Assembly: GCF_963921235.1 (NCBI RefSeq)
Contig: NC_086097.1
Span: 159,962,001 to 160,026,000, forward strand
Direction: 5' to 3'
DNA: 64,000 nucleotides
Origin: Mobula hypostoma
Lineage: Eukaryota
The translations under genes and the position numbers were made by a program. The notes below the pieces were generated by a model. That model was given only the letters and a program-made list of their open reading frames with translations. It ran no database searches and was not told the DNA's origin. This document shows positions 782-64,000 of this stretch, in pieces. Numbering within the stretch: the first letter of the stretch is position 1; each line of letters begins with the position of its first letter.

Positions 782-891
782 CAGGAGGTCCGGGAAGAAA
801 GACAAGGGGGGGGTGACCCAGAGGACGGGCAAGAGGTATATTCAGAGGGACAGAGGGAGAAAAAGGAGAGTGAGAGAAAGAATGTGTGCAT
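782..891 (-). mobile_element. Penelope 3' UTR fragment fused to the 5' end of the CR1
   Basis: Near-identical reverse complement of 4960-5070 (differs in the G-run and one substitution). Confidence 0.9.
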
Positions 892-2265: not shown

Positions 2266-3081
2266 GGGATAACTATGATAGATGGCACCTGACAGCATCT
2301 CTCAAACAATGGAGTCAAACTGAATAATGGTAGACAAATCATCAAAACAGAATTAAATGTTGGAATCAGCAAAAGCTGTAGAATATCTTCTTCTACTCAT
2401 TGTAGGCAAAAGAACATTGTGTTTGTGTTCCTTGGTAATTGAGGCCACACAGAGAAATAAATTATTGTCACCAGCCAGTAATATGGGACACGTCCTTAGA
2501 TTACGTAATACTCTGAGAAAGGTGATACGAGTTCCTGATATTCCATCTTGACTGTGCATGATCTAAAGGTATAATGAAGACTTCCGCTGAACCTCAAAAT
2601 TTGACAAGAAAATGATATTTCTCTTGCTTTGTTTCCCATGTAAATGCTGAGAATATATAAATGATGTACAGACCTTGAGGAAGATTATATATAATCTAAC
2701 AGTGCCTTTAGATATGCTCGCTGTCAATGGATCATAATCCAAATTGTGTTGAGCAAACTGCTGAAATTATCTCTTTTTCCCAACTCGTATGTACAGTAAG
2801 CATCTCTGCCATCACATTAAAAACATTTGTCGAACAACCAGTTAAAACTGACATTGAACTGGAAGTCTGGTTCCGTGGAACAACCTGAACTGAAAATTTT
2901 TGATCTGAATCCTATATCTTCTGTGTTTGTATTGGGTTCCCCAGGGTGAGAATTATATTTCAATGGTGCTGGATTTGAAGAAATGCGGTTAGTTTTAACA
3001 CAAGAGTTTAATTCCCCATTGTATTTTCTCATTTCCCTTATGCAGACTCTGTTACATTGCAACCTAGTTTATTGCAATGCT

Positions 3082-3178
3082 ACGCACACAAAATGCTGGA
3101 GGAACCCAGCAGGTCAGGCAGCATCTATGGAAATGAATAAACAGCCGATGTTTCAGGCCGAGACCCTTCTTCAGGATT
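3082..3178 (-). mobile_element. Penelope pLTR fragment with degenerate hammerhead
   Basis: Minus strand reads CTGAAGA-AGG-GTCTCGG-CCT-GAAA-CATC, homologous to 5213-5309. Confidence 0.85.
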
Positions 3179-4109
3179 CCTTATCCTGAATGTATTGCTG
3201 ATGTTTTCCCCTGAATGACAGATCAATAATTTTGCTTTTTTCTAAGTCTTAAAGAAAAAAAGTAGGGAAAGATATGGTCAATGTGGTCAAACCTAAAGTG
3301 TGTTCTTTCTGCATGTGTTTGCTTCTTTGTTTAGAAATAGAGGAAGTTATTGCGAATACATTTCCAATCTTACATCACGGAACTGAGAGAACATTTCAAA
3401 GCAGTTCAATAAGAGGCAACTTATACGAAATATAGAAATGCACAGTGGATTCATCCATCTGCAGGTAAGACATTGAGGATAAACAGCAAGGGGTATTAAC
3501 AGTCAGATCTGACTTCAGCATCAACTAAAGTGGGTGGAAACAGGTGTCTGAGGAATGATCACCCTGGTTAGTCTGCTCAGGACTAGACGCAGACGACAAT
3601 CTGAGAGGCATCAATGGGGGACCATGACAATATAGCAATCATCAGTTGGGCTCAGAATCTGTGAGTTGGCAGTAGTTTAAGCAACATATAATGTGGTAAG
3701 AGCACGGACAGTATCTGTAGAAGGTATGAAACATAATCTCAGTAAAGTTCAAACTGTCTTATTATAAACACAGGACAGAAACCCCAGCCACCAGGTGAAG
3801 AGCAGCACGGTTGCCAGAGCAGATAAACTGCTGAATAACTAAACCATCATGGAGAAGTTTTTCTCATGGGAATTGATAACTCACCTCCTTTACCTTGGAA
3901 GAGGATGGTATTCTGTGGGCTCTCAGAGATGCCATAATAGCAACGAAGGAGGCATCCAATTGCAGAAACTACAGAGCCTGATTCAACCCAATTGTATCTG
4001 ATTGTTCATTTCAATGGCCTGTTCCTCCACTCTTCGCATGCTTGTCGATTTGCTGGACATTAACAATTAGAAATACTTCCTTTTTGAAAATGTTTAATGA
4101 TCTAGTCAG

Positions 4110-4570
4110 TATGGAAGTAGGCCTTTCAGCCCAAATCTTCCTTGCCAACCAAGATGCATACCTAAACTAAGTCTAATTTGTCTGTGTTTAACCCTCTAAA
4201 TCTTTCCGATCTGTGTGTGTGCCTGTTTAAATGTCTTTTTAATGTTGTTTTTGCACTTGCCTCAACCACTTCCTCTGGTAGCTCCTTACATGCACGTTCC
4301 AACCTCTGTGTCAAAGAGTTGTCCTTCAGGTTAGTATTAAGTTTTTCACCTCTCGCCTTAAACCTTCACCCTCAGTTTCTTACTTGCTCAACACTGAGGA
4401 AAAAAATGTGTGCATTCGCCCTATCTGTTCTCCTTATGGTCTGATAAGATCTTACAAGATAATACGTATGATCGCCATAAGATCACACTGGCAACCTCCT
4501 ATGCTCTAAGGAATAAAGTTCGAACCTAACTAATCTCTCTCTCTAACCCAGACCTTCGAATACTGGCAAA
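4110..4570 (-). mobile_element. Decayed CR1 3' fragment
   Basis: Similar to other minus-strand CR1 ends (cctcaaccacttcctctgg...ctctcgccttaaacc). Confidence 0.75.
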
Positions 4571-4592
4571 ATCCCCCAAACAGTCCTTCCAG

Positions 4593-4919
4593 GTGAGGCA
4601 TCACTTCACCTGTGAGTCAACTGGGGTGATATACTGCGTCCGGTGCTCCCGATGTGGCCTTTTATATATTGGTGAGACCCGACGCAGACTGGGAGACCAC
4701 TTTGCTGAACATCTACGCTCTGTCCGCCAGAGAAAGCAGGATCTCCCAGTGGCCACACATTTTAATTCCACATCCCATTCCCATTCTGACATGTCTATCC
4801 ATAGCCTCCTCTACTGTAAAGATGAAGCCACACTCAGGTTGGAGGAACAACACCTTATATTCCGTCTGGGTAGCCTCCAACCTGATGGCATGAACATTGA
4901 CTTCTCTAACTTCCGCTAG
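4593..4919 (+). pseudogene. Penelope GIY-YIG endonuclease domain (open frame, RT part missing)
   Basis: VIY...CxxC...YIGET, R...EH, HF, E and GMN motifs of PLE GIY-YIG/CCHH. Confidence 0.9.
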
Positions 4920-5212
4920 GCCCCACCTCCCCCTCGTACCCCATCTGTTACTCATTTTTATGCACACATTCTTTCTCTCACTCTCCTTTTTCTCCCTCTG
5001 TCCCTCTGAATATACCTCTTGCCCATCCTCTGGGTCACCCCCCCCCCCGTCTTTCTTCCCGGACCTCCTGTCCCATGATCCTCTCGTATCCCCTTTTGCC
5101 TATCACCTGTCCAGCTCTCGGCTCTATCCCTCCCCCTCCTGTCTTCTCCTATCATTTTGGATCTCCCCCTCCCCCTCCAGCTTTCAAATCCCTTACTCAC
5201 TCTTCCTTCAGT

Positions 5213-5250
5213 TAGTCCTGACGAAGGGTCTCGGCCTGAAACGTCGACTG
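5213..5250 (+). ncRNA. Minimal type I hammerhead ribozyme (Penelope pLTR)
   Basis: Stem I AGTC 5214-5217/GACT 5246-5249; core CTGACGA 5218-5224; stem II AGG/CCT with loop GTCTCGG; GAAA 5238-5241; palindromic ACGT stem III; GTC cleavage triplet ending 5245. Confidence 0.85.
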
Positions 5251-6059
5251 CGCCTCTTCCTATAGATGCTGCTTGGCCTGCTGCGTTCACCAGCAACTTT
5301 GATGTGTGTCACAATGTATTGTATTCAGATTTTACTTTTCTGTCATCCTTATCAGGTCTGGTTATTTGTGACTCAAGCACCACCATGATGTGATTGTCTC
5401 CCATTTGTCCTCTAAATGGCAGACCAAGCCACAGTAAGGTTGGGCAATAAACAATGGGCCTTGTCAAAGATGTTGGGCTAGCTGCAAAATACTCCCAACT
5501 TTTTGTTTAGTAAGTCACCTCCACTTTTCTGCAGTTACAACAGAAGTCTTGCAAAATCTAAAAGAATATCCATCCTTTAACTAATTAGCATTCATGGAAA
5601 TAATCAACAATGTAATTATTTTAAGTGTTTGGCTATTCATGTATGTTTTTCACTGCTTCAGTGAGTGAAAGATGTGCTGCCAAATGAGGCAGAAAATGAG
5701 AAGCTGTTGTTAACAGTTTCAGCTTTTGGTCTGAGTGCATAAAGTCTTTCTGGTCTTTGGAAAAGTGATTATTAGCACTAATGTTCTCACATTACTGTGA
5801 TACTAACTACATAATAACAACAGTTGAGTTTGTTAGTGGTTCTTAGTGCTGAATGGTAGTGTAAAAATATCTCCCAAGCAAATATCATTTGTCACTGGTC
5901 ACTTCCACAAACTCTGTTCATCACACATTGAATCCATTAGTTTCCTTGGTCACTGTATGAAGTCAAACCGTGTATTGTATTGCAGCTATTGTACTCTCTG
6001 ATTCTTGGCCATTTTCAATGCTATACCCTCTCCATTAGTAGGAGTCCCAACTTTCAGCT

Positions 6060-14589: not shown

Positions 14590-14750
14590 AGAGATTCTGG
14601 AGATGCTGGAAATCCAGATGCTGAAGGAACTCAGCAGGTCAGGCACAACCCATGGAAATGAATAAACAGTTGATGAAGGGTCTTGATCTGAAACATCAAC
14701 TCTTTATTCTGACTGACTTGCTGAGTTCCTCCTGCACATGTGTGTGTTAC
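14590..14750. mobile_element. Palindromic element made of two inverted Penelope pLTR arms
   Basis: Left arm gaaggaactcagcaggtcagg...aataaacagttgatg; right arm tgatgaagggtcttgatctgaaacatcaac...gctgagttcctcc. Confidence 0.8.
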
Positions 14751-19276: not shown

Positions 19277-21790
19277 AGCAATACACGCAATGTGCTGAGC
19301 ATTCGAGCAGGTCAGGCAGCATCCATGGATGGGAATAAACAGCTGATGTTTCAGGATGAAACCCTTACTCAGGACTGGAAAGGAAGGGGGAAGAAGTCAG
19401 AATAAGAAGGTGGGGGCCAGAAGGAAGAAGTATAAAGGTGGCAGGTTATAGATGAAACCAGGAGAGGGGGAAGGGTGAAGTAAAGAGCTGGGAAGTTGAT
19501 TACTAGATAAAGGGCTGGAGAAGGAGAAATCTGATAGGAGTGGACAGAAGACCATGGAAGAAAGAGAAGGGGAAGGAGCACAAGATGGAGGTGATGAGCA
19601 GTTAAGAAGAGAAGGTGCATGAGGGAAACGGGAATGGGGAAAGAGAGGAGGGGGAGCAATTACTGGAAGTTCAAGAAATCGATGTTTATACTACTGGGTT
19701 AGACACTACCCAGATGGAATATAAGGAGTTGCTCTTCTATCCTGGCAGTAGAAGAGGTCATGGACTGACATATGGGAATGGGAAGTAGACTTGAAGTGGG
19801 TGGCCACCAGGAGATCCTGCTTTTTCTGGAGGATGGATTGTAGGTGCTTGATGAAGCAGTCTCACCAATATACAGGAGGCCACACCAGGAGCAGTGGATA
19901 CAGTAGATGACCCCAACAGACTTGTAGGTGAAGTGTCACCTCACCTGGAACGACTTGGAAGGACTGTTTGGGGCCATGCATGGTCGTGTGGGAGGAGGTG
20001 TAGGAGCAGTTGTGACACTTGTACTGCCTGAAAGGGTAAGTGCCAGGAGGGAGGTCAGTGGGGAGGGATGAGTAAACAAGGGAGTCGTGAAGAGAGCGGT
20101 CCTTGTGTAAAGTGGGAAGTGGGGGCGGGGGGGGATATGGTGGAGGATGTGCTTGGTGGTGGGATCCCTTTGGAGATGGCAGAATTTATTGAGAATTATG
20201 TCCTGGATGTGGAAGCTTGTGGAGTGGTGGGTGAGGATGAGGAACCCTATCTCTGCTGGGGTTGGAGTGGCAGGAGGATGGGGTGAGGACAGATGTGCAT
20301 GCAGGTGAGGATAGCATCAATGGTGGAGAAGAGAAGCCCCTTTCTTTGAAGAAGGAGGAAATCTCAGTTGTTTTGGAATGAGAAGCCTCATCCTGAGAAC
20401 AGATGTGGCAGAGACAGAGGCACTAAAAGAAGTGAATGGTGTTTTTACAAGTGACAAGATGAGAAGAGATATAGTCAAGATAGTTCTGAGTCAGTGGTTT
20501 TATAAAATATATCAGTAGATAGACTATCTCCAGAGATGGAGACAGGGAGATCAAGAAAGGGGACAGAGGTATCAGAAATGTTCCAAGTAAATTTGAAGGT
20601 TCAGTGGAAGTTGGAGGTGAAGTTGATGAAATTCATGAGCTCAGCATGACTGCAGGAAGCAGCACCAATGCGGTCGTCAATGTAGAGGAAGAGTTGGAGA
20701 GCGATTCCGGTGTGGGCTTGTATTATGGACTGTTCCACATAGCCGATGAAAAAGCAAGCATAGTTGGGACCCATGCAAGTTCCCATGGCTACACCTTGGG
20801 TTTGAGGGAAGTGGGAGGTGCTGAAATAGAAATTATTGAGAGTGAGGACCAATTCCACCAAATGGAGAAAAGTAGTGGTGGAGTGGAACTGGTTGGGTCT
20901 GTTGTCCAGAAAGAAGCAGAGAGCTTTAAGGACCTCCTGATGGGAGACAGAGTGTATAGGGACTGGACGTCCATAGTGAAAATGAAACAATCAGGATCAG
21001 GGAACTTAAAGTAATTGAAGAAATCGAGAGCGTGTGAAGTGTCACAGATGTAGGTAAGAAGGGACCGAACCAATGGGATAAAACAGAACTGAGATACGCA
21101 GACATGAGTTCAGTGGGGCAAGAGCAGCCTGAAACAATGAGTCTGCTTGGACAGGCAAGTTTGTGATCTTGGGTAAGAGGTAGAAATTGAAGGTGTGGGG
21201 TAAGGGAAATATGAGATGGTAGCAATGGATGGGAGATCACCAGAGTCGATGAGGTTGTTGATTGTGCTGGAGACAATGGCCTGATGCTCCTTAGTGAGGC
21301 CCTGTTCAAGGGGTAAGTAGGACGAAGCATCTGAGAGTTGCCATCTGGCCTCAGCAAGATAGTCAACCTGCCAGACTACTGCAGTACCCTTATCTGTGGG
21401 TTTGATGGTGAAGTCGGATTAGTGCAGAGACAGTGGAGAGCAGCACATTCAGAGGGAGTGAGGTTAGAATTGGAGAGAGGAGTGTTAAAGTTAAGATGGT
21501 TAATGTCTCATTGGCAGTTAGCAAAGCAGGCAAAAGACCAGGATGGGGTGTCCAAGAAGAAGAGAAGGGTTGAAGACTGAAGAAGGGGTCATCGATGTGG
21601 GCTGGAAAGTCATTGCCAAAGAAGTAGGCATGAAAATGGAGTTGACGGAAGAAGAGCTCGGTGCCATGGCGGGTGGGGAAGACACTGAGGTACGGACTCA
21701 GTGGGACAAAGATGAATCCCTTACTGAGAACAGAATGTTTTGCCTCAGAGATAGGAAGGACAGAGGGAATTGGGAAGACCTGACATGGTT
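19277..21790 (-). mobile_element. Penelope-like retroelement, near full length, decayed (N-terminus, RT, GIY-YIG, pLTR)
   Basis: VLSKGFIFVP, SRLIVSGCSCPTE, FTMDVQSLYT, GVAMGTCMGPNYAC, YIDD; GIY-YIG ~19670-19960; degenerate hammerhead ~19341-19376. Confidence 0.92.
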
Positions 21791-22667
21791 GAGAGCTGGG
21801 ATCAGGGAGTAGTCTACTAATACCAGATAGAGTTTCCAATTCTGGTGAAAACTTGGCGTGAAATAGCACAAGGTCATTAGCAGATCCAATGCTACATCAA
21901 GGTCGTTACCAAACATCCTCCCTTTCATACAACACCCAACAAGCTGTTTTAAAAATGCTCCTTTAGGTAGTTCACCCAATGCTACAAAAAGGCAGACTAA
22001 CTTTTCAAAAGCAAATAATCTACCTGTTTAGACAAGACTGACAGATGCCAATGTACTAACCTATCTGAAAATCCTAGTGGTTGGTTTTTATGGGGAGCAA
22101 CCACAGTTTCCTTCCAATTTTACTGAATTCACTGCTCTTAGATATGGCTGAGGAGTGATGAACATGAGTGCCCACTTGCACAAGCATAAAGAAGCAAATG
22201 GCTTCCTATGCTAGAATGTTCTTTGAGAATCGATAAATTTATCCAAGGAATAACTAAACCAGGAAATCCAAGGAATTTTCCCTGGGAATACGCAGAATTG
22301 AATGTGAGTAGCGTTGGATTAATGTAAATGGGTGTTTGATTTGCTGGATCAAAGAGCCTGTTTCTTTACTGTATGACTCTCTGACTCCATGATATGGGAT
22401 TTAAAATTCCTAGGTGCAGATGAAATGGTCTGATTGTTTTTCACTCAAAAATGATCTTCAACCTTAAGCTTGAGTCTGCTGGAATTTAGAAGAGTGATTG
22501 GCTCATATGAAATGCTAAGGGGTGGAGAGAGTTCTTTCTCTTGTGGGAGAATCTAAACGAGGAGATATTATTTAAAAGCATGTTATGACCTATTATGGTA
22601 TTAAGGCCGAGGCAGTGTGTTTTCCTTTGCTCTCAGAGGTTTGCAAGTCTTTGGACCTCTCTTCATC

Positions 22668-22800
22668 AAACAGTCCTGCTGAAGGGTCTCGGTCCAAAAC
22701 ATCAACTGTACTCTTTTCCATAGATGCTGACTGGCCTGCTGAGCTCCTCCAGCATTTTGTGTGTGTTACTTAGATTTCCAGCATCTGCAGATTTTCACTT
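22668..22800 (+). mobile_element. Penelope pLTR fragment, degenerate hammerhead
   Basis: cagtcctgctgaagggtctcggtccaaaacatcaactg...gatgctg...ctgctgagctcctccagcattttgtgtgtg. Confidence 0.85.
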
Positions 22801-27387: not shown

Positions 27388-27642
27388 GATGCTGGAAGTC
27401 TCAAGCAACACAGACAGAATGCTGAGTAACACACACAAAATGCTGGGGGAACTCAGCAGGCCAGGCAGCATCTATGGAAACAAAGTACAGTTAATGTTTT
27501 GGGCCGAATGCTTGAGGAGCTCAACAGCTCAAGCAACATCACTTAGGCAGAGACCTTTCATCAGGAATTCTGAAGAAGGAACTTGGACCAAAACATCAAC
27601 TCTTTATTTCCCTCCATAGATGCTGCCAGCATTTTGTGTATG
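27388..27642. mobile_element. Palindromic Penelope pLTR pair with back-to-back degenerate hammerhead cores
   Basis: Minus arm ...gacctttcatcagga, centre GAATTC, plus arm ctgaagaaggaacttggaccaaaacatcaac...ccatagatgctgccagcattttgtg. Confidence 0.75.
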
Positions 27643-27779
27643 TCTCTCTAGGTGTCCTTCTTTTGTGCACCATTCTTCTAAATCTTCGTACATGTAGCTA
27701 TCTTGTGTTCATCTCTTATATATGCACCTATAATGGGCATACATCACTTCAGTGCAATTCCCATTTTGCATACCCATTT

Positions 27780-45279: not shown

Positions 45280-46140
45280 ATGAGTGAACCAAAGATTGAA
45301 CCAGCAGAGTATGCTCACCTCAAGGAAGTCGTCCACCAACACGAAGAGACGATTCAGAAGCAGCAGGAAACCATTGATCATCTGGCCGCCACTTTCATCC
45401 ATCTCTCTGCCTCGATGCAGCAATTCCGTGCTAGTCAACCTCCTCCCTCTGAGCCCCAGATTCCTGTGCCCAAATGCTTCAACAGATTGCCATCCTGATG
45501 CTACAACTTCACCCCTCAGTGCATGTTCCACTTCGAGCTCGAGCCATCCCTGTATTCTATGGACTGGGCCAAGGTCTCCTTGCTCATCTCTCTCTTGACT
45601 GAGCAAACTCTGACCTGGGCCACTGCTAACTGGGACAATAAAACCACCATCACTATTTGCAACAAATACGGGTATTTCACCGCTGAGATGTGCCGGATTT
45701 TCGACCATCCAGGAAGTGGAAGGATGGTAGCAGATCTGATACTTGACCTGCACCAAGGCTCATGCTCTGTGCTGGATTGCACCATGGAATTCTGGACCCT
45801 CGTGGTGGAGTGCAGCTGGAATGTGAAAACACTGCTGTCCCATTACCATCACAGCCTCAGGAGGTGCTAAAAAGATAAGCTGTCTACCCGAGAGATGCCC
45901 ACTGACCTCAAAAGCCTCATTAACATGGCTCTTTGTATTGGCAAGTGTCTTATGGAATGAATCTGCAGATCACCAGTGCCTCCAAAGCCCAGACAGTTAG
46001 AGAGAGCTTTCTTAATGCCCCCTCCACCCTACCAAGAGCTTGAGCATCAGTGGAGAAATAACTTATGCACTTACTGTGGAGCAGTTAAGCACCAATGCAT
46101 CAAATGCCCATTGTGCTCGGGAAAATGGCACTCCAGGTAG
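45280..46140 (+). pseudogene. gag: Sushi-like gag with CCHC knuckle (frameshifted)
   Basis: AKVSLLISLLTEQTLTWATA, LHQGSCSVLDCTMEF, CTYCGAVKHQCIKC. Confidence 0.85.
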
Positions 46141-46344
46141 AAACTAGGGTTTCCTATCTGGAAAGTTCTCCCTGGCCCCTCATTCCAGCACTATAGCCCA
46201 TCTCATCCTTTCTGTCCTCCTCCACTATCCATTGGCTCTACATGAACAGGAGGCTCTGGGCTCTGGTGCATCGGATAACTTTCTGGATCGGAGCTTGGAT
46301 TCCTCACTTAACCTATTTCTCACTCCTTCAACATCATGGCCATT

Positions 46345-46640
46345 GTCGGTAGGATAGAGATTAGCACAACGCTATTTCATCTTGGGGCTTTGGATTCCAG
46401 AGTTGAATGCTGCCATCCCCTGCAAGAAATCTTTGTACATCACCCCCGTGGAATGCTTGGGTTTTCTCAGGGATCTCCAGTTTCCTCCCACAGTCCAAAA
46501 ATGTTCCTGGTAATTTAATTGGTCATTGTAAATTGGGTCATGATTAGATTAGGGTTAATTGGGGTTGCTGAGGTTTGCTGTGTGGGGTGGCTCAAAGGGC
46601 TGGAAAGGCCTATTCTGCGCTGTATCTCTAAATAAAAAGA
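46345..46640 (+). mobile_element. V-SINE inserted in Gypsy pol
   Basis: gggttttctcagggatctccagtttcctcccacagtccaaaa; ends ctgtatctctaaataaa. Confidence 0.8.
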
Positions 46641-48329
46641 TGAAATAAAGTTCAAACTGTTGTTGAATGACCCTGACTGCACAACCTCAATCAGCTGCAG
46701 TGCTTCCTGTGTTTCTTCAACTTATAACACCATTCCATCAGAAACTACAGTCAAATCATCACTCCTCTTACCTACCTCATCGATAACCTGGCTGGCTGTC
46801 ACGGACTATGCTTCTGAGAGCTCAAGAGACACTTCACCACCAGTCCCATTCTGTGCCATCTGAACCCCTCAGGTCTTTTGTGAAGAAGTGGACACACCTG
46901 ATATGGGCACTAGGAACATCTTCTCTCAGCAAGGAGCCGACAGGAAGGCATGTCCTTGTGCCTTTTTCTCATGCAAGTTCAATTCTACACAACGCCCCTC
47001 TGGAGTGTGAGACAGGGAGCTCCTTGGAGGAATGGAGACATTGGCTGATGGGAAACACTGAGCCCTTCCTGATCTGGACTGACCACCAGACCTCATATCC
47101 ATACAGCAGACCTCCCACCTCAACCCACGCTGGGATCTCCTCTTCGATCAATTCAACTTCACCATCTGCTTCTGACCCAGTTCCCAGAACACAAAGATGA
47201 ACACCCTGTCACAGCAGTTCAAACTAGCTGAGATGGAGATTAGCCCTCAGTCCATCAGTTCAGATCTTCGCCCCGATTATCTGGGACCTTGAGAACCAGA
47301 TCTGGCAGGCCCTGCAGCACCAGCCTGCTCCAGCTGACACACCTGACAACCACATATACATGTTGGTGGCTGTGTCCTCTGATACATTCCAGTGGACCCA
47401 CTCCTCACCCTTTCCCCCCATCGAGGTGCACAACATGCTCTGGGTTTTCTGCAATGCCTGTTCTGGTGGCGCACCATGATCACAGATATACAACAGTTAG
47501 TTGCTGCCTGCCCTCAGTGTGCCCGGCACCATTCCTCCGACCATCAGCCCTCTGGGCTCCAACTAAAGGGCCCTCGACACTCATTCATTACCCTCCCCAA
47601 ACGTCCATCAGCCACTGAGACAGCAGACCTGGTTCTCCAACATGTAGTTCAACTCCACAGTTTCCCTCAGGACATTGTCGTGGACCAGGCACCACAATTT
47701 GCCTCCCGCTTCTGGTGAGACTGCTGCTCCCTCCTTTGCACCACGATGGGCTATCATCCGTAGACCAATGGTCAGTCAGAAAGAGCCAATCAGCAAATGG
47801 AGAAGCTTTTGTGATGCCTGTAACCTTTCCACATGGAAGAATTATCTGCTCTGTGCCAGTCTGTCCCACAACCTACACACTTCCTCTGCCATGGGTCTGT
47901 CACCTTTGAAGTACATCATGCCTCCCAGCCCCCTTTGTTCCCTGTAGAGGAGTCCACGGTGGAGGTCCTGTTTGTGAGGGCACTGGTTCACCACTGCTGG
48001 AATGCTTGGAGGAAGGCATGGGAGGGCCATCCCTGCTGTTAGCCATGTAATCTGCCACCAGACCAACCACTGTCGGCACCCAGCCAGACGACTCTGACCT
48101 GGGGAATGTCTAGCTGACCACCTGAGATTTGCCACTCTGTACAGACCCCTGCAAGCTCTTGTCCGAGTTCATTGCTTCCTTCAAGCTCACCCATCGCATC
48201 AATCCAGTCACTTACTATCTCCAAATGGCGAAGTTCCTCAGGATCACACCTATCTTCTATGTATCCTGTCTGAAGCTCATTGCCTGTGCACCACTTCACC
48301 CACCCGAGCCTGCATCTCTGTAACTCAGG

Positions 48330-48520
48330 ATGGTGGAAGGTGGTCTAGTGTACATGATTTGCCAGTTGATGGATTCACGTCACCATGGGCGGCGTGTGCA
48401 GTACCTTGTTGACTGGGCAGGGTCAAGCCCAAAGGAGAGATCTTGGATGCCGTCCAATTACATCTTGAATCCATCACTCATCGGTGAGCTCCAGCTGATC
48501 CATCCGAATAACCTGGGCTA
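48330..48520 (+). pseudogene. Integrase C-terminal chromodomain
   Basis: YMICQLMDSRHHGRRVQYLVDWAGSSPKERSWMP...ILNPSLI. Confidence 0.88.
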
Positions 48521-49659
48521 TCAGGGGCCCTCCGAGGGGGTGTGGGGGTAGGTGGAGGTCCTGTTGAACCTGCTCCTGCAGCTGCCTCCCAGCTTGCACA
48601 TGCAGGCAATTCCCATTCTCCTGCAGTCAAGTGGCGCTCATTCCAGACTCATCACCTGAATCCCATTTCACCCCAGTTCACACCTAGAGACCTTGTTCAC
48701 TCATCAAATCAGCCAGCCTCAACCAATTGCTCCTAGCTTTCTCTCTTCTTGCTTAAAGTTTATCTTGCTGCCTATTGTGTTTAGTTTCTCTTCCTTCTTG
48801 TTTTGTGGTCTCTTGTGGCTTGTTATTTCATGATCCACTATTAAAGTTACCATTCACCGCAGAATCATCTCCACTGCTCTGCTAGTCCCAACCTTTTTTG
48901 GAGCTAGTCCGTCAAGCCTCCTCTACATTTCCTGACATAAAGAGTCTGCAAGACAAGTGTTTTACTGTATCTTAGTACGCATGACAATTTAAGCTAATGA
49001 CAATACGAAAGATTCATGACCTCCTGAGATTAGAAATTCCCCCCCATCCCTGTCTCAGATTGTCAACCCTTCATTCTGAAACTATGCCCCTTAGATCTGG
49101 ATTTCCTCACAAGGAAGAAAGATCTACTTGCATCCACCCTGCAAACCCACTCAGTGACTCTATGTTACAAGATCATTCCAAAGTAATCGTGAATGAGTAT
49201 AGTCCTAATCTACTCAACCCTTTTCATTCTCAACTATTTTGTTCCAGAAATCAGCCTTGTGAACCTTCAATGCTGCACTTCCAGTGCAGACATACCCTTC
49301 CTTAAAAATGAAGATGAAACTTGACCGTACAATCCAGGCCCAGACTCACCAGCACTCTACAAAGCTTCATTACTTCACCACAAGCTAAATTATTGATTGC
49401 TTGCTCTACCTGCATGCTGACGTTTCACTCAGTTAAGGTAAATGCACATGATCTTTCTCTTAGGGTTGAGAATCAAGAGCTACAGGTCACAGGTTTAAGA
49501 TGAGAGAGTAAAGAATCAGCAGGAACTTGAGGGGAGTCATTTTTTTACTCAAGGGTAGCACATATGGGGGATGAGTTGTCAGAAGGAGTAGCTGAGGCAG
49601 ATAAAATAACAACATTTAAAAGACAGTTGAATAGGTACATGGATTACAAAGGTTTTGAA

Positions 49660-51853: not shown

Positions 51854-54800
51854 ACTACTACTATTACTACTACTTCTTCCTCTTCTTCTTCCTCCTCTTC
51901 TTCTTCTTCTCCTGCCAGTTTAGACGCATCTAGGTGTATTACTGCCCTCCGCAGGACGTATAATTAATTATAGGAGAATTTCAAGGAACTCAAATTCTCG
52001 AATATGACCCAGTCTCACGTATAAACTGTAACGTGGTTTCCAAATAATTGCATTGCCTCAAATCACATTAATTTCATTTGAATCATTTATAAAACTAAAA
52101 GCTTCTTGTTTGAGAATATTCATTATCGCATGCTTAACTTTTAAAATTGCTGTTTTCCAAGTCTATCTGCTATTTCCAAGTTTTCCTTTTCTTGAATCAA
52201 AGCCTGTAGTTGTTTATCGATATCTTGAAGTTCTTCCTCAGTTATTTCCAAGTTTCCATTTTATAATCCGAATGTAGATAATTCACTTTGCAACAAATTC
52301 ATTTTCCCTTTTGTAACTTTGGAATAAGTTCCTCCATTTTCAATCTGTTTTCCATGTCACTGAATTTTTGATCACAAGCATCTTTTTCAGTTACATACTT
52401 CATAAATTCTTGATCATTTGTGATAAGACTCCTTGCATTCCTTTGTGATATTATATGATGCTTATAGGGGTGTATTATAGACTAGCTAATGGGGACCGAG
52501 AACTGGAGGAGCAAATTTGTAAGGAGATAGCAGATATTTGTAGTAAGTACAAGGTTGTGATTGTGGGAGGTTTTAGTTTTCCACACATAGACTGGGAAGC
52601 CCATTCTGTAAAAGGGCTGGATAGTTTGGAGTTTGTCAAATGTGTGCAGGATAGTTTTTTGCAGCAATACATAGAGGTACCAACTAGAGAAGGAGCAGTG
52701 TTGGATCTCCAGTTAGCGAATGAGACAGGGCAGGTGACAGAGGTATGTGTTGGGGAGCACTTCCGGTCCAGTGATCACAATACCATTAGTTTCAATATAA
52801 TTATGGAGAAGGATAGGACTGGACCCAGGGTTGAGATTTTTGATTGGAGAAAGGCTAACTATGAGGAGATGCGAAGGGATTTAGAAGGAGTGGATTGGGA
52901 CAATTTTTTTTATGGGAAGGATGCAATAGAGAAATGGAGGTTATTTAAAGGGGAAATTTTGAGGGTACAGGATCTTTATGTTCCTGTTAGGTTGAAAGGA
53001 AAGTTTAAAAGTTTGAGAGAGCCATGGTTTTCAAGGGATATAGGAAACTTGGTTTGGAAAAAGAGAGGGATTTACAATAAATATAGGCAGCTTGGAGTTA
53101 ATGAGGTGCTCGAGGAATATAAAGAATGTAAAAAGAATCTTAAGAAAGAAGTTAGAAAAGCTAAAAGAAGATACGAGGCAGCTTTAGCAAGTAAGGTGAA
53201 AATAAATCCAAAGGGTCTCTACAGTTATATGAATAGCAAAAAGACAGTGAGGGATAAAATTGGTCCCTTAGAGAATCAGATTGGATGGCTATGTGCAGAG
53301 CCAAAAGAGATGGGGGAGATTTTGAACAATTTCTTTTCTTCGGTATTCACTAAGGAGAAGGATATTGAATTATATAAGGTAAAGGAAACAAGAAAGGTAG
53401 TTATGGAAATTATGATGATTAAGGAAGAGGAAGTAATGGCGCTTTTAAGGAAAATAAAAGTGGATAAGTCTCCGGGTCCGGACATGATATTCCTTAGGAC
53501 CTTAAGGGAAATTAGTGTGGAAGTAGCAGCGGCTCTGACAGAAATATTTCAAATGTCATTAGAAACAGGGATGGTGCCGGAGGATTGGCATATTGCTCAT
53601 GTTGTTCCATTGTTTAAAAAGGGTTCAAAGGGTAAACCTAGCAATTATCAGCCTGTGAATTTGACGTCAGTGGTGGGTAAATAGATGGAAAGTATTCTTA
53701 GAGATGGTATATATAATTATCTGGATAGACATGGTCTGATTAGGAACAGTCAACATGGATTTGTGCGTGGAAGGTCATTTTTGACAAATCTAATTGAATT
53801 TTTTGATGAGGTTACTAGGAAAGTTGACGAGGATAAAACGGTAGATGTTGTCTATATGGACTTCAGTAAGGCCTTTGACAAGGATCCACACGGAAGGTTA
53901 GTTAGGAAGGTTCAATCGTTAGGCATTAATATCGAAGTAGTAAAATGGATTCAGCAGTGGCTGGATGGGAGACGCCAGAGAATAGTGGTGGATAACTGTG
54001 TGTCAGATTAGAGGACGGTGTGTAGCGGTGTGCCTCAGGGATTTGTACTGGGTCCAATGTTATTTGTCATATATATTAATGATCTGGATGATGGGGTTGA
54101 AAATTGGATTAGTAAGTATGCAGATGATACTAAGATAGGTGTCGTTGTGGATAATGAAGTAGGTTTTCAAAGCTTGCAGAGAGATTTAGGCCAGTTAGAA
54201 GAGTGGGCTGAAAGATGGCTGATGGAGTTTAATGCTGAAAAATGTGAGGTGCTACATGTTGGTAGGACTAATCAAAATAGGACATACATGGTAAATGGTA
54301 GGGCATTGAAGAATGCAGTAGAATAGAGGGATCTGGGAATAATGGTGCATAGTTCCCTGAAGGTGGAATCTCATGTGGATAGGGTGGTGAAGAAAGCTTT
54401 TGGTATGCTGGCCTTTATTAATCAGAGCATTGAGGATAGGAGTTGAGATGTAATGTTGAAATTGTACAAGGCTTTGGTAAGGCCAAATTTGGAGTATTGT
54501 GTGCAGTTGTGGTCACCGAATTATAGGAAAGATGTCAATAAAATTGAGAGAGTACAGAGGAAGTTTACTGAAATGTTGCCTGGGTTTCATCTCCTAAGTT
54601 AAAGAGTTGAACAAGTTAGGTCTTTATTCCTTGGAGTGTAGAAGGTTGAGAGGGGACTTGATAGAGGTGTTTAAAATTTTGAGGGGGATTGATAGAGTTG
54701 ACATGGATAGGCTTTTTCCATTGAGAGTTGGGGAGACTCAAACAAGAGGACATGAGTTGAGAGTTAAAGGGCAAAAGTTTAGGGGTAACATGAGGGGGAA

Positions 54801-63199: not shown

Positions 63200-64000
63200 A
63201 ACAAACACAAAAGATTCTACAGATGCTGAAAATCCAGAGCAACTCACACAAAATGCTGGAGGAGTTCTGCAGATTAGGGAGCATCTACAAAGAGGAATAA
63301 ACAGCTGATGCTTCAGGCAAAGACCCTTCATTATGACTGAAAGGAAGAAGGAATTTTCCAGGGGCAAGATTACACAAGGACTGCTCTCTCCGTGGTTCCT
63401 TTCTCCATTTGTCGCTCCCCACTAAGTACTACACCTGCCCATTCACCTTCTCCCTCACCTCCATTCATGGACCCAAACATTCATCCAAGTGAGGCATCAT
63501 TTCACCTGTGAATATTTTGTGGTTGACTACTGTATAAAGTGCTTATAATGTGACCTTGTCTACATTGGTAGGACTCAATATAGATTGGTGTACTCCTTTG
63601 TTGAACACCTCTGCTCCTTCTGCAAACATCAGGATTTTCCAGTAGCAAACCATTTTAATTCCTATCCCCATTCCATTCTGACATGTTGTTGAATTGCCTC
63701 CTCTTCTGGCACGATGTGGCCACCCTCATTTTAAATGAGCAACACTTCATAGTCCTTCTAGGACCTGATGGCATGAACATTGAGTTCTGGTCATTTTCCC
63801 CCTCCCCCCTCCATCTTCTTTAATTCCCCATTCTGACCTCTTAGCTCTTCTCCTCTTTGCCTATCATCTCCCTTGGTGCACCTCCTTCACCTCTCCCAGG
63901 GTCTACTTGCCTCTCCTATCAGATTCATTCTCCAGCTCTTTACCTTCTCCACCTATCACCTCCCAGCTTCTTACTTTGTCCACTCTCCCCGACCCACTTG
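63200..64000 (+). mobile_element. Penelope: inverted pLTR (63200-63340, minus) followed by decayed GIY-YIG and 3' UTR (plus), running off the window
   Basis: gaggcatcatttcacctgtga...tacattgg...cctgatggcatgaacattga homologous to 4593-4919. Confidence 0.85.

Follow-up and report, generated by a model that had tools for sequence, protein, structure and literature searches.

Penelope-like elements (PLEs) of metazoans carry a class of minimal type I hammerhead ribozymes (min-HHRs) in their pseudo-LTRs (pLTRs), as described by Cervera & de la Pena in 2014 (PMC4209133). The published consensus consists of a U-rich flank, CUGANGA followed by one extra base, GAAA, a palindrome and NUH, with a stem II usually opened by a G10.1-C11.1 pair that is highly conserved, not invariant (PMC4209133). 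Single min-HHRs are reported to show no cleavage, and dimers or trimers low cleavage (PMC4209133); according to a review, a tandem layout appears to be needed for cleavage (PMC6765202). The ribozyme of an anole element is reported to cut only with protein, and no ends were reported for it in RNA-seq (PMC11167929), while the role of min-HHRs for PLEs is described as an open question (PMC8557442).

Here we describe a motif of this class in the ray Mobula hypostoma, within a window of 64,000 nucleotides (the whole stretch of DNA that was analysed). It resembles the min-HHRs of Cervera & de la Pena in its type I topology, its CUGANGA box with an extra nucleotide, its short stem I and its C-G palindrome in the place of stem III, and likewise in its setting, with a U-rich 5' flank, a position after a GIY-YIG ORF and mostly solo occurrence in 5'-truncated copies (PMC4209133). 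It differs in host group, since no cartilaginous fish figures among the 56 rows of the Fig. S3 alignment, and in its stem II, which in the ray is short (4 bp) and closed by G·U where G10.1-C11.1 is the published rule. With PAc, the Poseidon element of Anolis (PMC11167929), it shares its nature as a vertebrate PLE hammerhead near a repeat end, and PAc insertions end at alternative points (an optional tail) as happens behind position 5309 in the ray (PMC11167929; PMC8557442). PAc cleavage has been assayed and is protein-assisted (PMC11167929), whereas cleavage of the ray motif is a prediction, and Poseidon elements lack the CX4CxxC linker that relatives of the ray element carry (PMC8557442). Animal non-LTR retrozymes (PMC7229834; bioRxiv 10.64898/2026.07.22.740005) also have type I hammerheads and a link to PLE pLTRs, but they are non-coding tandem repeats, whereas the ray copy is single and joined to an endonuclease (EN) fragment. 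Hammerhead retrozymes are reported in the one chondrichthyan sampled (bioRxiv 10.64898/2026.07.22.740005), and the main text of PMC7229834 does not mention sharks. Our search, which most subscription journals lay outside, found no published Penelope hammerhead from a ray or shark, so that unpublished status is unproven.

The motif class and its place in PLEs have been known since 2014, and the ray copy is a further member. As a single locus of a published class, and a copy that is probably silent, it carries little weight; its use is that of a clean natural substrate that can be dated, being young and matched by an empty site in a relative, and that comes from a host group not represented in the published alignment.

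A minimal hammerhead motif in the window

A genuine minimal type I hammerhead motif is present at 5214-5249 on the plus strand, within the terminal repeat at the 3' end of a young PLE (Table 1). The initial annotation held that every hammerhead core nucleotide is present, and all 11 core positions are indeed found without mismatch, H17 being C. Read in order, the segments are AGTC (5214-5217), CTGACGA (5218-5224), the stem II region (5225-5237), GAAA (5238-5241), CGTC (5242-5245) and GACT (5246-5249). Stem I, previously given as 4-5 bp, has 5 bp once the terminal U·G formed by T5213 and G5250 is counted as the fifth pair, the topology is type I, and a palindromic ACGU at 5241-5244 (15.2-16.2) replaces stem III, as had been proposed.

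Table 1. Features of the young insertion and of related copies in the window.
Positions	Strand	Feature	Basis
4575..5309	+	5'-truncated Penelope-like insertion (EN+, probably Neptune/Nematis-type), 735 nt	empty site in organism B, family contig limits
4575..4919	+	3' end of ORF: GIY-YIG endonuclease carrying a CCHH motif; 114 stop-free codons followed by TAG	Pfam, protein matches
4920..5309	+	3' pseudo-LTR / 3' UTR, pyrimidine-rich	after ORF stop; same order in older minus-strand copy
5199..5211	+	upstream strand; in the predicted off fold it pairs with 5218-5229 and masks the catalytic core	pair probabilities 0.68-0.81
5213..5217	+	stem I, 5' strand	motif letters and descriptor search
5218..5224	+	core C3-A9 (CUGACGA)	motif letters, copy comparison
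5225..5225	+	unpaired extra A, placed after A9 and before G10.1 as in the family	published consensus and folding
5226..5237	+	stem II: 4 bp (G·U, G-C, G-C, U·G), 4-nt loop; 11.1 = U	folding, copy comparison
5238..5245	+	G12-A15.1, zero-loop palindrome ACGU (5241-5244), cleavage nucleotide C17 (5245); predicted cut 5245/5246	
5246..5250	+	stem I, 3' strand	motif letters and descriptor search
5251..5309	+	downstream end module; ends before optional tail of other family copies	family contigs continue behind 5309
3079..3179 (motif 3143-3178)	-	older solo copy (motif and end), core intact, 15.2/16.2 mismatched	
14616..14750 (motif 14666)	.	decayed copy with inverted arm	
19277..21283	-	older, longer, broken element copy with RT and EN remnants, at least to 21283; decayed motif 19341-19376	
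22670..22791 (motif 22672)	+	decayed solo copy (motif and end) with longer tail	
27425..27644 (motif 27566; partial 27425-27508)	.	cluster of decayed copies arranged head to head	
63216..64000		decayed terminal repeat in inverted orientation (minus, 63216-63353, motif 63303-63338) joined to plus-strand broken EN remnant (63352-63808)	

Core letters alone match three times in the 64-kb window against 6.5 matches expected, which is not above chance. A minimal-hammerhead descriptor that also demands a zero-loop palindrome together with stems I and II matches a single locus in the window, 5214-5249, and on dinucleotide-shuffled windows the same full descriptor finds any match in 3/1000 and a match with a stem I of at least 4 bp in 1/1000. 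The hammerhead search that had been suggested as a check came out positive with the descriptor and negative with the Rfam covariance models, which, hammerhead families included, gave no match at E <= 1 across the whole window. The exact motif pattern occurs at no locus in the metagenome, viral and prokaryote collections searched.

The motif was compared among the seven full-length copies in the window (5214-5249 included) and one partial copy, and folded as an isolated 38-mer. Stem II, which the initial annotation drew as three base pairs (AGG/CCT), has to be redrawn: folding favours a G·U-closed 4-bp register that opens with G5226·U5237 and leaves A5225 unpaired (pair probability 0.96 vs 0.02), and we rejected the A-U register on this result and on the published consensus (PMC4209133). 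As isolated hairpins the two registers are nearly equal (-2.5 vs -2.2, 0.3 kcal/mol apart), and the seven window copies fail to separate them (89% vs 86% paired). The 10.1-11.1 pair is G·U in this copy and G-C in two of the seven; by our own count G·U also stands there in 8 of the 56 rows of the Fig. S3 alignment (PMC4209133), so the change is compatible with membership of the min-HHR class and does not break the copy. No motif position occurs among the 40 of 115 difference rows listed for the contig comparison; if these rows rank by share (the lowest listed for the element near 60%), T5237 would be widespread in the family instead of peculiar to this copy.

Four of the five CpG-type sites examined in this copy read CG, and the fifth, 5237-5238, reads TG. 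Across the seven full copies the latter site is TG in five and CA in two, with CA also in the partial eighth and CG in none. This is the pattern of a lost CpG, and the 11.1/12 site would most likely be one, lost in this copy or in its source, so that the earlier description of the only window copy with all CpGs intact is probably wrong on the CpGs; it is still the sole one of the seven full copies to combine an unbroken core with CG at 15.2/16.2.

The host element and its age

The motif lies in a 3' pseudo-LTR after a GIY-YIG fragment, 294 nt from the TAG at 4917-4919 to 5214, which agrees with the earlier placement in a Penelope terminal repeat about 300 nt past the GIY-YIG stop. Frame 4575-4916 matches PF01541 (GIY-YIG) with an E value of 0.00057 and 20.6 bits, under the 22.6 cut-off. 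Identity of the endonuclease fragment is 93% to a protein of Mobula hypostoma, and 70-86% to the five Hypanus sabinus proteins with a coverage of 96% or more. In 6/6 aligned endonuclease sequences the CCHH residues (C24, C27, H62, H68) and the catalytic-type Y, G, R, H, E and N are invariant. Some ray proteins that match the endonuclease at 63-80% are labelled divergent protein kinase domain 1C, mucin-2 and receptor-transporting protein 3-like (P0003, P0005, P0006), and these host-gene names are probably annotation artefacts.

An RT domain precedes the endonuclease in relatives (P0021) and in the older window copy and is missing from the copy at 4575-5309. Just upstream of where this copy begins, 5/5 aligned relatives have a CX4CxxC linker, and a CX2-5CxxC linker between RT and EN is described as a trait of Neptune and Nematis, not of Penelope/Poseidon (PMC8557442). 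On the linker of these relatives a Poseidon-type element was rejected, and the element is tentatively placed with the Neptune/Nematis type. With one motif joined to an EN fragment and no tandem non-coding units, the copy does not have the layout of a retrozyme.

The age and limits of the insertion were assessed by comparing four of 24 listed sequencing runs with positions 3250-5650 of the window; the raw-read run X21 contributed no reads. In a relative (organism B), the 735-nt element is absent: one contig, of single-copy depth, matches 4262-4574 on one side and 5310-5650 on the other, and 69 unrelated letters separate the two parts. The flanks differ from those of organism B at 25 of 1684 letters (about 1.5%), so the insertion is young, as the initial annotation had it; the CpG observed/expected ratio agrees, at 0.46 for the element against 0.23 for the older copy and 0.25 for the whole window. 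Family contigs run on both before 4574, marking the 5' truncation, and behind 5309, where the optional tail lies. In the flanks of 4575-5309 no target-site duplication was seen. The simplest reading is that the insertion occurred after the split of both species, with a small target deletion, and loss of the element in organism B is less parsimonious. The 69 letters at the organism B empty site (4574/5310), absent here, represent either a target-site deletion or an independent insertion in B. Selection on the motif copy was rejected as an explanation: all 18 differences listed for the element lie outside the 38 nt of the motif, a distribution that chance allows.

Older copies and their decay

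The older minus-strand copy keeps the order RT, EN, pyrimidine tract, motif and end module, its 3' part at 19277-19955 being arranged like that of the young insertion. Across the seven full window copies, which are few and come from one window, the covariation score of 0.225 was reached by 102/500 shuffles; the other six show decay by CpG-type changes, not covariation. At 15.2/16.2 the CpG has become CA in 6/6 of them, and in the partial copy, and never TG (two-sided p 0.016), and at the 17/1.1 site CA is found in 5/6 and TG in none. Random decay should yield both CA and TG, and the palindrome may therefore already have been broken in older source elements when they spread.

Four of the seven copies, all of them solo (3176-3195, 14616-14675, 22655-22672 and 27507-27569), begin just before the motif, and each has a short or long inverted arm at its 5' end, which suggests fold-back at this point during copying.

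Predicted folding, transcription and cleavage

Cleavage after C5245 (C17), as predicted previously, is supported by the motif letters as a prediction that needs a dimer formed via ACGU. In its own context, the pairing of 5199-5211 with 5218-5229 has a probability of about 0.8, a level reached by 4/300 flank shuffles. For the 38-mer, the dimer with hammerhead pairing has an energy of about -11 kcal/mol, two monomers -22 and the best inactive dimer -30; these nearest-neighbour energies omit the non-canonical hammerhead core and protein help, so that the active fold is under-rated and the values are indicative only. By descriptor, the 64-kb window holds no second intact motif that could act as a tandem partner.

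The unique flanks on both sides of the element have depth 0 in the presumed-RNA run X6, a weak absence as it concerns contigs of one run. Element depth in X6, which is no measure of copy number, exceeds that of the unique flanks by orders of magnitude. In one X6 contig the end module is followed by sequence from 4857 onwards, a junction of tandem type, which shows that such arrangements exist elsewhere in the family. An X6 contig that ends at 5245 was rejected as a sign of cleavage: RNA ends are not visible in contigs, and branching of a subfamily near 5214 would in any case place contig ends about 30 nt further on. A Pfam search of 300 of the 388 non-repeat ORFs (608 in total, at least 45 aa) found only mobile-element domains above cut-off and no host domain, weak hits under the cut-off being disregarded; the element may still be intronic, the Pfam scan being blind to short exons. 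An exon-like stretch at 3334-3470 (plus strand, AG ... GTAAGA) has stops in the three plus frames by eye and no coverage in the presumed-RNA run.

The proposal that the motif would cut any plus-strand transcript through it is not supported: this is a solo copy whose core is predicted to pair upstream (about 0.8), published single min-HHRs showed no cleavage, the anole ribozyme needed protein, and no transcript through the locus was seen in X6, the one presumed RNA run.

A probable silent passenger and the rival explanations

Our preferred reading, to which we give a probability of roughly 0.88, is that the locus is a silent passenger, intact because it is young and not because it was selected. 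An active PLE has recently placed a 5'-truncated copy here, as its limits, the empty site and the open EN fragment show, and with it came the minimal type I hammerhead of the family, which sits in the 3' pseudo-LTR. In a tandem transcript of the parent, by extension from other families, two such motifs would build a common stem III of 4 bp from their ACGU palindromes, swap stem I strands and cut after C17, probably with the help of the element's own protein. The copy would be chemically competent in principle; given one motif, no RT, no sign of a transcript and a favoured fold that hides the core, we infer that it is almost certainly silent in vivo.

Were the motif a chance look-alike of a hammerhead, the bare core letters being no commoner than in shuffles and the missing Rfam match would follow, but just 3/1000 shuffles pass the full descriptor, the motif stands at the very place where PLEs are known to carry hammerheads, and the shuffle test and the fit to the published min-HHR consensus together refute an origin by chance, which we consider next to impossible. 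Cleavage in vivo by trans pairing with other family copies, or with the element protein, would shorten a host transcript, and several observations are compatible with it: all core letters are present, other copies offer the same palindrome and a compatible stem I, DNA and the presumed-RNA run both show the family to be highly abundant, the end-module junction to 4857 occurs in one X6 contig, and protein-assisted cutting is published for the anole element (PMC11167929). We nevertheless think it very unlikely, since X6 has no flank coverage, no host gene was identified by the domain search, the off fold dominates, even cis dimers are reported to cut weakly (PMC4209133) and the anole RNA-seq data are reported to contain no ends (PMC11167929).

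The motif could also be a vestige or a protein-binding structure in this lineage, with no working ribozyme even in the parent element. The occurrence of CA and never TG at 15.2/16.2 in all six other full copies and the partial one (p 0.016) favours this, as do reports that hammerhead cleavage is not needed for insertion in vitro (PMC11167929) and that Naiad elements thrive without canonical hammerheads (PMC8557442). Against it, no core letter is missing from the youngest copy, which also keeps the palindrome, and seven copies from a single window make a small sample in which some may go back to a common source. We rate this explanation as very improbable.

The pyrimidine-rich strand directly upstream of the motif might act as a built-in, sequence-specific safety catch that silences this hugely amplified family in host RNAs until the element protein or a partner copy refolds it, a model that would account for the many solo copies starting exactly at the motif, and that we hold to be very unlikely. 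Pairing between core and flank exceeds that of flank shuffles in two of the three copies that keep their own upstream sequence (4/300 and 2/150 shuffles reaching it), whereas in the third, which has three core changes, 84/150 do, and this shuffle test was chosen after the fold was seen. Fold-back during copying can create upstream complementarity without function. The predicted off hairpin offers one cheap test that bears on the role of min-HHRs.

Other mobile elements in the window

A LINE RT copy, which we take to be CR1-like, occupies 1-781 on the minus strand, with a truncated 5' end and a pentamer tail at 1-30. Joined directly to this 5' end is a 110-nt piece (782-891, minus strand) that is 96% identical to 4960-5070 of the young element, and the two are possibly a template-switch chimera. 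LTR-type retrotransposon remnants extend over 45499-48548 on the plus strand, with an integrase zinc-binding domain at 47383-47715 and a Tf2-like SH3 domain at 48126-48320, and, below the Pfam cut-off, a chromodomain at 48324-48548 and DUF4939 at 45499-45867. A LINE remnant at 52449-54293 (plus strand) retains a 411-codon open frame with an endonuclease domain below cut-off, followed by RT.
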